Source: an uncultured Candidatus Saccharibacteria bacterium (GTDB lineage: Bacteria; Patescibacteriota; Minisyncoccia; Phycocordibacterales; DATDWN01). Taken from it: a stretch of DNA of 64,000 nt. Position numbers and translations under genes: made by a program. The stretch lies in contig CAYXWL010000001.1 of the NCBI GenBank assembly GCA_964468795.1, positions 232,246 to 296,245 of the forward strand. The letters are read 5' to 3'. The notes below the pieces were generated by a model that was not told where the DNA came from, ran no database searches, and saw nothing but the letters and a program-made list of their open reading frames with translations. Below, one piece after another: positions 20,424-22,083 of the stretch. Position 1 is the stretch's first letter, and every line of letters begins with the position of its first letter.

Positions 20424-20474
20424 TCTGTTTCGTCGTTTCCGACTCATCAGGTGAGACATACATCTCACGACAGG
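20424..20474 (-). ncRNA. Hammerhead ribozyme, type III (copy i)
   Basis: Minus-strand RNA: CUGUC|GUGAGA-UGUAUG-UCUCAC CUGAUGA GUCG-GAAA-CGAC GAA ACAG; all core nts (CUGAUGA, GAAA, GUC) present; stems I/II closed, III open. Confidence 0.8.
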
Positions 20475-20558
20475 TGCCTTGGGTGCTAATCAAGACAAAT
20501 GATTTTTGGCCCTACTGCCCCTTGCGGGTACTCGGACCTTCTGTTGCCAAGCCGGTCA

Positions 20559-20945
20559 TTACTCCGGCTCCGTCTCCTCAAGCTGCTCTTCAGCAAGCTC
20601 GAGTTTTCTGCAGGCCTCTTCGAAGGCAACCAAGGCAGGAATGTTTCCCTTGCCCAGCTCTGGCAGCACTACGATTGGGAAGATTTCATCTCCCGTCTCG
20701 AGGTACAACCGAGAACCTTCTCCGTCGTGATGGGCGGCCCGCGAGAACTGGCGATGGCAGGAACGGCACTCGAAATAATCCAAGTCGTTCACTTCCACCG
20801 TGCAAGCTCCACAGGACGGACACCCATAACAAAGGAGTCGGCGTTGCGATTCTTCGTAGGCGAGCATTGGACACGAAGACAAGTGCTCGGACACTGACTC
20901 GTGGCAGTGTCGGCACTTTACCGTCAGTCGCAGTCTCATACTCAC
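20559..20945 (-). CDS. Cys-rich zinc-finger protein (multiple CxxC pairs)
   Basis: CRHC..C..CYGCPSCGAC..CRSC; SD TAGGAGGTGAG 6 nt upstream of ATG. Confidence 0.55.
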   Translation of the reverse strand: MSMRLRLTVKCRHCHESVSEHLSSCPMLAYEESQRRLLCYGCPSCGACTVEVNDLDYFECRSCHRQFSRAAHHDGEGSRLYLETGDEIFPIVVLPELGKGNIPALVAFEEACRKLELAEEQLEETEPE

Positions 20946-20978
20946 CTCCTATTAAAGAACTTGAGACAAACCATTTGC

Positions 20979-21040
20979 CTCGTCATAATAATCAAAATCT
21001 TGATTTCTCTGACGAGACCCCGACTGATATTTTAGTCGGG
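20979..21040 (-). promoter_or_regulatory. X-type UTR module copy g (variant arms CUCGUCA..UGACGAG + hairpin CCCGAC..GUCGGG)
   Basis: Architecture conserved, sequence diverged with compensatory changes; upstream of 20559..20945. Confidence 0.45.
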
Positions 21041-21315
21041 ATGTTGTGGTGGTGACTGTAAGCGATTGCAGTCACTTACAACCTTGAGATGTTCGGCGAA
21101 TTCCGAGCACCTCTTAGTGAATGTTTGGCTCCACCCGTATCCGAAATAGATACGGGAATCTGGCGCAAGCGCTGGGTGAGAATCTGCAACTCTCACGCTC
21201 TAAGCACCATTCACTCCCTCATGTATCATGGGCCACCACAGCTCCACGACACCTTGCACAACATTTTTTAGAAAAATTCTGTGCGAGATGTCGTGGATAG
21301 ATCAAAAGAACAGTT

Positions 21316-21366
21316 TCTGTTTCGTCCTTTCGGACTCTTCAGGGAGAATACACATTCTCCGACAGA
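21316..21366 (-). ncRNA. Hammerhead ribozyme, type III (copy ii)
   Basis: UCUGUC|GGAGAAU-GUGU-AUUCUCC CUGAAGA GUCC-GAAA-GGAC GAA ACAGA; begins 7 nt after stop of 21373..21651. Confidence 0.8.
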
Positions 21367-21372
21367 GCCGGA

Positions 21373-21651
21373 CTAACGTGCCGGCAACGAATAATTTTTT
21401 CTTCTCCACCTCCAAGGTTCATTTGAACCGACTCGGAACACGTAGCGGCCACACCGTGAGGTGTACCAGCCACGCGACTCGTCGGCCTTCCGCATTTTTG
21501 TGCGGAAGAAGTTACGAAGGCGACTCACATCACGCGACGTGAGCGGGCGGCCCTTGAGGACCTTTGCCCAGCTGAAGTACCCGTCTTCACGAGTGATCTC
21601 CAGCAACCGACCACCGAACCGATACTGGCCTCTTGACCACTCGCTTCCCAT
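21373..21651 (-). CDS. Small Arg-rich hypothetical protein
   Basis: CTAGGAGGTATC SD before ATG; 92 aa. Confidence 0.4.
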   Translation of the reverse strand: MGSEWSRGQYRFGGRLLEITREDGYFSWAKVLKGRPLTSRDVSRLRNFFRTKMRKADESRGWYTSRCGRYVFRVGSNEPWRWRRKNYSLPAR

Positions 21652-22032
21652 GATACCTCCTAGTTTTGAAAGAATAGTGGGTGTTTGCAGGATCCTCTCT
21701 GACTTTAATAGTCCGTGGCTTATCCACAGCTATTTCCTAGTGGTAACTTACCCACAAGGTCGTCTTTGATTAATCACCGCTAACATTGCACACCCGCGCA
21801 ACGCCAAGATGCCGGCAAGCATCTGGTGGATCGGAGCAAAGTTGCCTGGCCTCAGTTCTGTACGATTGCAGCCACTTTGGACTGCAATCTACCTCTCAGG
21901 CTGCCATGCCTTCGAAACACAGAAGTGTACCTTTGGCTCTGCTCCTAACGAAGATCCATCGGACTCCGGAATTTACCAAACTATTTGTCGAGCAAATTCC
22001 GAAATCCGTGAACCATTTTATTTTAAAGAACT

Positions 22033-22083
22033 TCTGTTTCGTCCTTTCGGACTCATCAGGCGAGACACTCATCTCACGACAGA
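22033..22083 (-). ncRNA. Hammerhead ribozyme, type III (copy iii)
   Basis: UCUGUC|GUGAGA-UGAGUG-UCUCGC CUGAUGA GUCC-GAAA-GGAC GAA ACAGA; ~50 nt downstream of stop of 22134..22352. Confidence 0.8.

Follow-up and report, generated by a model that had tools for sequence, protein, structure and literature searches.

We analyzed a 64,000-nucleotide (nt) stretch of Patescibacteria DNA (contig CAYXWL010000001.1, positions 232,246 to 296,245 of the forward strand; hereafter the window, its first letter being position 1) and found that three type III hammerhead ribozymes lie on its minus strand between small genes of an accessory island. The three elements are confirmed as hammerhead motifs. We consider it likely that they are functional ribozymes which would cut one leftward transcript of accessory genes into single-gene RNAs, with a boxA element behind each cut that would reload Nus factors. 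This reading draws on the observed sequence and structure of the elements, the covariation among their relatives, the flanks shared throughout the family and the arrangement of the copies in an array; cleavage in vivo, co-transcription, protection by hairpins and the function of boxA are proposed on these grounds.

The role of self-cleaving ribozymes in bacteria has been an open question since their discovery there in 2011. The locus described here is part of a large and coherent subfamily, apparently unreported, that is concentrated in the ultra-small Patescibacteria, and the conserved hairpin on its 5' side and the conserved motif on its 3' side are new parts of the hammerhead unit. These two flanks turn a vague "processing" into testable 3'-end protection and Nus/Rho control. 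If the reading holds, bacterial hammerheads would have a defined place in cut-and-reload transcription, and this would be the first case in nature of a self-cleaving ribozyme coupled to processive anti-termination. The searchable literature yielded neither a mention of hammerheads in Patescibacteria nor a natural pairing of a hammerhead with boxA; the two occur together in an engineered construct only, in which a hammerhead was inserted into an rRNA operon (PMC10250234). Mapping of RNA ends could check the prediction, since some Saccharibacteria are cultivable together with their hosts.

Three hammerheads in the window and their relatives

Read as RNA, with a slash at the predicted cleavage site, copy i is CCUGUC/GUGAGA-UGUAUG-UCUCAC-CUGAUGA-GUCG-GAAA-CGAC-GAAACAGA, copy ii is UCUGUC/GGAGAAU-GUGU-AUUCUCC-CUGAAGA-GUCC-GAAA-GGAC-GAAACAGA and copy iii is UCUGUC/GUGAGA-UGAGUG-UCUCGC-CUGAUGA-GUCC-GAAA-GGAC-GAAACAGA. 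From 5' to 3' they consist of stem III's 5' strand (C/U-CUGU), the C at the cleavage site, a closed 6–7-bp stem I, CUGAUGA or CUGAAGA, a closed 4-bp stem II capped by GAAA, a further GAAA and the 3' strand of stem III (CAGA). The hammerhead core, C3-U4-G5-A6-N7-G8-A9 together with G12-A13-A14, is complete in all three. Copies i and iii carry CUGAUGA and copy ii carries CUGAAGA, where the A at core position 7 is permitted because this position is N in the hammerhead consensus. The cleavage triplet is GUC in every copy, which fits the N-U-H rule with its A15.1-U16.1 pair and a base other than G at position 17. The topology is that of type III, with loops closing stems I and II and with stem III open. 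The copies are spaced by 717 and 892 nt.

An earlier, sequence-only reading of this DNA had already placed the three elements here, and the sequence read-out, the Rfam model, the chance controls and the covariation all agree with it. Its coordinates and stem sequences are correct apart from stem III of copy i. The five pairs that it gave to this stem form in copies ii and iii, but copy i, whose stem II is GUCG/CGAC, has four standard pairs only, with C opposite A at the fifth. Its distances from the preceding stop codons (84–85, 6–7 and 50 nt) are right within 1 nt.

The Rfam model Hammerhead_3 (RF00008, clan CL00010) aligns with all three copies from end to end at 41.5–44.4 bits, with E-values of 1e-7 to 8e-7 in a 4-kb scan and of 2e-6 to 1e-5 over the whole window. 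Moreover, the pattern CTGANGAG..CGAAAC occurs three times in the window against 0.03 times expected. Scans with RF00008 and with a covariance model of the family (R1, see below) found no fourth copy in the 64-kb window. Twister, pistol, hatchet and delta-like ribozymes were found neither in the window nor in eight hammerhead arrays, where the matches were Hammerhead_3 and tRNAs only.

The window copies resemble the hammerhead of satellite tobacco ringspot virus in the core, in stem III (CUGU/ACAG) and in the type III topology, as well as in the 4-bp stem II GUCC/GGAC with a GNRA loop and in the 6-bp stem I with a loop starting UGUG. They differ from it in that they lie in bacterial DNA between protein genes and not in a circular satellite RNA, and in that loop I has 6 nt instead of 7. 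An engineered hammerhead that ends in GAAACAGG presumably originates in the tobacco ringspot satellite. It is printed as CCUGUC-ACCGGA-UGUGUUU-UCCGGU-CUGAUGA-GUCC-GUGA-GGAC-GAAACAGG (PMC6238598).

Relatives were collected with the exact search string CTGANGAGTCSGAAASGACGAAACAG, which covered only the 3' half of the ribozyme and matched 11 IMG/VR contigs and 60 species-representative genome contigs. By their labels, 46 of the 60 genome loci belong to Patescibacteria (Saccharibacteria, Paceibacterota, Parcubacteria, Kaiser-, Taylor-, Nomura-, Wolfe-, Uhr- and Lloydbacteria, and Minisyncoccia), 9 belong elsewhere and 5 are without a name. Because the genome search used the window's own stem II sequences, the Patescibacteria share of 77% holds for this subtype and not for all hammerheads, and the labels of metagenome-assembled genomes may include mis-binned contigs. 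At seven loci (L014, L019, L033, L053, L063, L065 and L069) the labels name Phycisphaerales, Micavibrio, Bdellovibrionales, Spartobacteria, Aquificaceae and delta-proteobacteria. These seven contigs share the hammerhead, and several share the 3' motif described below as well; mis-binning or horizontal transfer could explain them.

The 5' half of the ribozyme (CUGU, cleavage base and stem I), which lies outside the search pattern, conforms in every match. Of the 66 distinct relatives, 51 have C at the cleavage site, 8 have U, 7 have A and none has G, and 98.3% of the cells of the proposed structure are paired. Pairs changed on both sides number six in stem I, one in stem II and one in stem III. 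The observed covariation score was reached by none of 500 shuffles, and pairing fell to 27–48% when the partners were slid by 1–3 columns. The sequence-only reading had taken compensatory changes as the signature of ribozymes, which is a thin argument from three copies alone but is borne out in the wider family. Furthermore, loop I starts with an invariant U, followed by G in 65 of the 66 relatives, and loop II is GAAA; this conservation is compatible with a tertiary contact between the two loops, of the kind to which fast cleavage at low Mg2+ is due.

The covariance model R1, built from the 66 relatives, matches 122 copies in the collected DNA. Twenty-five loci hold 2–6 same-strand copies, whose spacing has a median near 730 nt, and many loci hold a single copy. 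Among 24 array copies tested with RF00008 (from loci L012, L018, L025, L051 and others), two close relatives, at 49.6 bits, passed the threshold of the model. Because this threshold excludes most of the subfamily, routine annotation of Patescibacteria genomes will not show these ribozymes.

We further examined the flanking open reading frames (ORFs), namely those that end shortly before a hammerhead or start shortly behind one. Their median length is about 120 amino acids, and 123 of the 173 distinct ones are singletons without a relative in the set. Searches of 142 flanking ORFs gave only scattered Pfam matches, with no family in more than two ORFs, and almost none in PHROG. There is no protein family common to the neighbourhoods of the ribozymes. 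As the flanking ORFs are mostly unrelated, the ribozymes mark variable regions of genes without known relatives and no particular gene. Strand co-orientation, judged by mechanical ORF coverage, was uninformative (47 same strand, 30 opposite and 30 similar). In three related viral contigs of IMG/VR the hammerhead stands directly after an apparent tRNA 3' end (GGTTCAAACCC..ACC), at 4243–4298 of L002, 9040–9095 of L007 and 2808–2863 of L011. The placement points to formation of the tRNA 3' end by the ribozyme there; no boxA-like motif follows the hammerheads of these three contigs.

Conserved sequences around the ribozymes

A hairpin stands directly 5' of stem III in each window copy (Table 1), and the same arrangement is common in the family. 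The end of a hairpin lies no more than 4 nt from stem III in 80 of 105 copies (76%), compared with 29% of control windows, which were drawn at random from the same loci. The mean folding energy of the 5' flank is -9.5 kcal/mol against -4.3 kcal/mol in these controls (p = 4e-24). After the predicted cleavage, the hairpin would be 6–9 nt away from the 3' end that the cut creates on the upstream RNA. In this position it could shield the released RNA from 3' exonucleases, in place of a terminator hairpin.

Directly after the ribozymes stands a second conserved element, the 3' motif GTTCTTT(G/A)AAAA (in RNA form GUUCUUUGAAAA). In an unbiased k-mer count over the 30 nt after the ribozyme, GTTCTT is present in 38 of the 105 flanks, where 1.4 would be expected; GTTCTTT with at most one mismatch is found within 26 nt in 62 of the 105. 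Positions G1, T3 and T6 of the motif are invariant, C4 and T7 almost so, and A-rich sequence follows, so that the family logo reads G-T-T-C-T-T-T-N-A-A-A-A. Within the window the motif also stands after small hairpins, where it precedes the ribosome-binding sites (RBSs) of island genes on both strands, and it was not found at the housekeeping genes of the window.

The motif resembles boxA, for which the consensus GYTCTTTAANA has been given (Baniulyte et al. 2017; PMC5725501). An exact match to this consensus occurs at three sites only on the two strands of the window, all of them on the minus strand inside the array. Like the boxA elements of rRNA operons, lambdoid phages, suhB and CRISPR arrays (PMC5725501, PMC7665894), to whose consensus GTTCTTTAAAA conforms, the motif is found in untranslated RNA of the transcribed strand, in many cases behind a hairpin as in rRNA leaders, and ahead of long, poorly translated RNA that is open to termination by Rho. 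Unlike the known elements, these putative sites are repeated many times in one unit, directly after a self-cleaving ribozyme.

We also compared the motif with rRNA leaders, using 120 metagenome loci with a Saccharibacteria-type 16S signature; the 5' ends of the 16S genes were located and the leader block was aligned via the conserved downstream sequence. At the boxA position these Saccharibacteria leaders read G-N-W-C-N-T-T-R-A-M-A-A, and the forms GTTCTTTAAAAA, GTTCATTAAAAA, GATCTTTGACAA and GGTCTTTAAAAA are common to the leaders and the hammerhead flanks. A matrix made from 30 distinct Saccharibacteria leader sites gave 8 bits or more in 34 of 105 hammerhead flanks and in 15 of 2139 controls (p = 1e-23). 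In addition, GTTCTTTGAAAACTGAAT is a primer for the detection of mycoplasma by nested PCR, which we take to target the 16S–23S spacer and to sit on boxA there.

Other identities of the motif fit less well. A terminator scan flags the sites as terminator-like, but G1 and C4, which are not U, are the most conserved positions, against the expectation for a U-tract. A promoter -35 box is not compatible with the many relatives in which the motif is only 5–15 nt from an RBS. A helix of GTTCTTT with AAAGGAC (loop II and stem II) was rejected since C4 is constant whether stem II has GGAC or CGAC. Nor does the motif behave as part of a lambda-like nut site, as no general hairpin follows it (mean -6.8 kcal/mol against -7.6 kcal/mol in controls). 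The motif is most likely a boxA element, and its function would be that of boxA.

In the window, a further hairpin follows the 3' motif of each copy. The sequence-only reading had reported a conserved block of about 130 nt after copies i and ii; the block exists, but it comprises about 100 nt that are roughly 65% identical. A very stable hairpin of 55 nt forms its core, and the hairpin after copy iii is analogous. Hairpins of such stability after the ribozyme are local to the island and to the related Minisyncoccia contig L051, and are not general in the family. With 49–55 nt, these hairpins behind the hammerhead and the 3' motif are long enough for RNase III substrates.

The putative leftward unit and competing explanations

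The gene content of the window (type IV pilus genes, RecG, FtsH, SecY and transfer-messenger RNA) is that of a bacterial chromosome segment, with a GC content of 35–41% over most of its length and of up to 45% in a few segments. The island at 18–28 kb has a GC content of 44–50% and almost no long ORFs. RBSs are present at the minus-strand genes adjoining the ribozymes, and the proteins of 72, 92 and about 126 amino acids encoded there gave no Pfam or PHROG assignment of worth. These three proteins are conserved in L051, where four hammerheads occupy the corresponding place, downstream of the same TrmB-like gene. L051 is the closest relative of the window, and together with the gene content it points to the window's lineage. 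An exact-protein look-up of FtsH gave no match, and the 72-amino-acid protein was found on two short Logan contigs only. The homology between the window and L051 stops at the 3' edge of copy ii, beyond which each genome has unrelated genes. A large serine recombinase is encoded at 29426–30757, about 7 kb off the array. In a PHROG scan of ten island ORFs, only the one with sigma-70 region 4 matched (sigma-factor and transcriptional-regulator families); no phage structural family was among the ten, and a DNA comparison with 50,697 phage records gave no match, which speaks against a phage origin.

A promoter-like and a terminator-like site, each found by consensus scan only, bracket the array as one leftward unit of roughly 23.1 to 18.4 kb, whose genes would be co-transcribed. 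Between each window ribozyme and the next gene lie 330–380 nt of highly structured untranslated RNA. The 380-nt stretch at 21652–22030 (minus strand, before the 92-amino-acid gene) is conserved in L051, especially at 21774–21852 (L051 1354–1433), and contains a hairpin with apparent compensatory changes (GAUGC..GCAUC against AACAC..GUGUU). The stretch may represent a structured leader RNA not described before.

In the proposed mechanism, each ribozyme would fold as the RNA is made and would cut itself after the C of GUC. The upstream RNA would be freed with the hairpin, a few nucleotides and a 2',3'-cyclic phosphate at its end, and the downstream RNA would begin with a 5'-OH followed by the two hairpins of the ribozyme. 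During or after its synthesis, the leftward transcript would thus be turned into single-gene RNAs with defined structured ends, and the stability and translation of each would be independent of its neighbours. The cut would also sever the nascent RNA from a Nus-factor complex loaded upstream and expose long untranslated structured RNA. Rho silences foreign DNA. A fresh boxA behind each cut would reload NusB/NusE on the polymerase, and Rho would not stop the rest of the array; boxA protects untranslated CRISPR arrays likewise (PMC7665894). We extend this reading to Patescibacteria in general only tentatively: a three-part module of 3'-end hairpin, hammerhead and boxA might punctuate horizontally exchanged accessory-gene arrays there, cutting the RNA and reloading Nus factors against Rho.

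The processing part of this scheme was already contained in the sequence-only reading and is the established one, because Perreault et al. (2011; PMC3088659) made the same inference for clustered prophage hammerheads. They described clustered hammerheads flanking single genes in prophage or mobile DNA of Agrobacterium tumefaciens, Azorhizobium caulinodans and Clostridium scindens, and proposed processing into gene-length mRNAs; three prophage arrays were cleaved in vitro, and the Agrobacterium array in vivo as well (PMC3088659). The present array is similar in having several same-strand hammerheads within a few kb, around single genes or short blocks of varying identity, in having a recombinase nearby and in its inferred processing role. 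It differs in lying on a Patescibacteria chromosome, in using one compact type III subtype throughout, in having a 5' hairpin and a 3' boxA-like motif conserved in the unit, and in having no recognisable phage genes.

A likeness also exists to integron cassette arrays, in which small, diverse and mostly unknown genes are each followed by a structured repeat and vary between related genomes. Here, however, the repeat is an RNA enzyme with covariation of the RNA type, and the likeness is in layout only. No integron tyrosine integrase was found among the ORFs scanned, attC cores are absent, and the GTTRRRY of such sites (RYYYAAC...GTTRRRY) is not matched by GTTCTTT.

Several points weigh against the reading of functional hammerheads followed by boxA. 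All three copies fall under the RF00008 gathering score of 48.5 bits, which is a curation cut-off and no biological feature. A default Rfam scan therefore reports no hammerhead here, and the check by this model that the sequence-only reading had proposed gives full-model matches to all three copies but none at the gathering threshold. Energy minimisation alone pairs the core CUG with CAG and does not form stem III; such failure is common for three-way junctions, and the hammerhead fold is thus not confirmed by energy. The three exact boxA matches compare with 0.85 expected and are not significant as a count, and copies i and ii match the GYTCTTT core only. Position 8 of the motif is usually G, C or T and not A, and the 3' motif is absent from the IMG/VR copies of this hammerhead type. 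The rRNA leaders compared come from Saccharibacteria and not from the lineage of the window itself, and the form most common among them, GAACGTTAAAAA, deviates at positions 2, 3 and 5. Finally, the window ribozymes are not simple leader elements, because 330–380 nt separate each of them from the next gene.

The same distance bears on another explanation, in which the ribozymes mainly serve the downstream gene as insulators that fix its 5' end and free its RBS, the motif being a U/A-rich translation enhancer or standby site. Many relatives have ribozymes that end 13–45 nt before an RBS and start codon with the motif in between (for example in L013, L025, L033, L042, L043 and L051), and the motif stands 0–6 nt before the RBS of window genes that have no hammerhead. 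The engineered insulator RiboJ likewise joins the same ribozyme type to a hairpin. However, a mere U/A-rich spacer would not hold G1 and C4 nearly invariant, the motif resembles one in rRNA leaders, a place without translation, and it was not found at the housekeeping genes of the window. The three ribozymes of the window are also 330–380 nt from the next start codon. We hold the insulator explanation to be unlikely, though not negligible. Cleavage might also be conditional, with pairings of the flanking hairpins or a bound factor switching the ribozymes and so regulating the accessory genes. No conserved ligand-binding domain or alternative helix was found for such a switch, the possible pairing of the 3' motif with stem II does not covary with the C/G swap in stem II, and fast, constitutive, minimal natural hammerheads have the same layout. 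The flanks are nevertheless conserved and structured, stem III is short, the energy-minimised fold competes with it, and regulated cleavage has been suggested for phage hammerheads (PMC3088659); we give conditional cleavage a small chance.

Two further explanations place the weight on the repetition of the copies. They might matter as repeated DNA, a portable homology or recombination site of 55–90 bp that shuffles cassettes, with RNA cleavage incidental or lost. The end of the window/L051 homology at copy ii with unrelated genes after it, the identity of up to 96% over 86 nt between copies in different positions, the widely varying cassette content and the large serine recombinase speak for such a role. 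It is opposed by the pattern of conservation, which is that of an RNA enzyme (invariant core, compensatory stem changes and no G at the cleavage site) and would not result from selection on DNA homology, and by the lack of both an integron integrase and attC-type core sites. We regard it as improbable as the main explanation, and it could coexist with ribozyme activity. Alternatively, the segments between the hammerheads (717 and 892 nt) might be excised and ligated, for example by RtcB, to circular RNAs like those of retrozymes or viroid-like RNAs. The tandem same-strand copies fit a layout of the retrozyme type, and 5'-OH and cyclic-phosphate ends are the substrates of RtcB-type ligases. Perreault et al. 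raised this possibility too, but their search of comparable arrays for circular or spliced products was negative (PMC3088659). Moreover, the size and content of the units vary between relatives, many loci are single-copy, there is no sign of replication or reverse transcription in the units, and the reverse transcriptase at 32.6 kb is part of a diversity-generating retroelement. We hold circular products to be very improbable.

Feature coordinates and other elements

The positions of the array elements and of the repeats near them are compiled in Table 1.

Table 1. Features of the hammerhead array and its surroundings in the window.
Feature	Position	Strand	Remarks
Hammerhead copy i, type III	20422-20477	minus	predicted cleavage C20469/G20468; RF00008 42.3 bits, R1 71.6 bits
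Hammerhead copy ii, type III	21314-21369	minus	predicted cleavage C21361/G21360; RF00008 44.4 bits, R1 75.8 bits
Hammerhead copy iii, type III	22031-22086	minus	predicted cleavage C22078/G22077; RF00008 41.5 bits, R1 72.5 bits
Hairpin UGUCUUG-AUUAGCACC-CAAGGCA	20475-20497	minus	directly 5' of copy i
Hairpin GCCGG-CACGUUAGU-CCGGC	21367-21385	minus	directly 5' of copy ii; loop holds stop codon of gene 21373-21651
Hairpin CCAGAGCGUCAUCCUGG	22084-22100	minus	directly 5' of copy iii stem III; same hairpin precedes hammerheads in L051, L042 and L034
boxA-like GTTCTTTGTAA	20412-20422	minus	starts 3 nt past copy i stem III
boxA-like core GTTCTTT(TGAT)	21301-21311	minus	7 nt past copy ii; match to GYTCTTT core only
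boxA-like GTTCTTTAAAA	22021-22031	minus	starts 3 nt past copy iii stem III; exact GYTCTTTAANA
Small hairpin + GTTCTTTGAGG	22361-22393	minus	directly 5' of RBS of gene 22134-22352; no hammerhead
Small hairpin + GTTCTTTAATA	20950-20981	minus	exact boxA consensus; directly 5' of RBS of gene 20559-20939
Small hairpin + GTTCTTTAAAA	19417-19446	minus	exact boxA consensus; leader of gene 18886-19386
Long hairpin after copy i	20354-20407	minus	-28.1 kcal/mol, z -6.4
Long hairpin after copy ii	21243-21297	minus	-30.5 kcal/mol, z -7.4; sequence related to hairpin after copy i
Long hairpin after copy iii	21960-22008	minus	-28.9 kcal/mol, z -8.1; different sequence; conserved in L051
Gene, 72 amino acids, no known domain	22134-22352	minus	upstream of copy iii; protein conserved in L051
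Gene, 92 amino acids, no known domain	21373-21651	minus	upstream of copy ii; relatives beside hammerheads in L051 and L034
Gene, about 126 amino acids, rich in Cys-X2-Cys (zinc-ribbon-like)	20559-20939	minus	upstream of copy i
Gene with helix-turn-helix of sigma-70 region 4 type	19545-20093	minus	next gene downstream of copy i
Promoter-like site TTGACA-17-TATACT	23145-23117	minus	11/12 consensus; head of leftward unit; consensus scan only
Terminator-like hairpin, then TTTCTTTATT (T-run)	18443-18420	minus	end of leftward unit; consensus scan only
Second repeat	18704-18753, 22389-22468, 25685-25733, 26545-26593, 27167-27220
Second repeat, variants	19443-19484, 26224-26265, 20972-21020

A second repeat is present in leaders of island genes on both strands. 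It consists of GTTYGCCC followed by an inverted repeat of 11 bp, TCCCATCAAAG...CTTTGATGGGA, whose arms enclose an AT-rich loop that varies in length. Its variants alter both arms together (TTCCTTCAGA/TCTGAAGGAA and CTCGTCAGAG/..TGACGAG). The repeat also occurs in L051 and L034 and matched no Rfam family; it may act as an RNA hairpin or as a site where a protein binds. Moreover, two inverted blocks of about 100 nt (19439–19538 and 26169–26269), 6.6 kb apart, are 84–95% complementary. Because each block leads an outward-facing gene, the island consists of two mirror-image halves with a common regulatory sequence.

Beyond the island, parts of a diversity-generating retroelement lie at 32278–33719 and 30849–31784, with a bAvd-like protein and a reverse transcriptase in two frames at a GAGAGAGAG run. 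A frameshift, a pseudogene or an assembly error could account for the split of the reverse transcriptase. The adjoining GC-rich ORF of 311 amino acids may be the target gene of the retroelement, and its leader has a GTTCTTTGATA motif. A ribonuclease with a beta-CASP metallo-beta-lactamase fold is encoded at 47227–48630 (minus strand); its best NCBIfam matches, type VII Cas14 and archaeal aCPSF1, are both well below the cut-offs. The window also carries a tRNA-Ile with the anticodon TAT at 39805–39879 (minus strand), a tRNA that is uncommon in bacteria.

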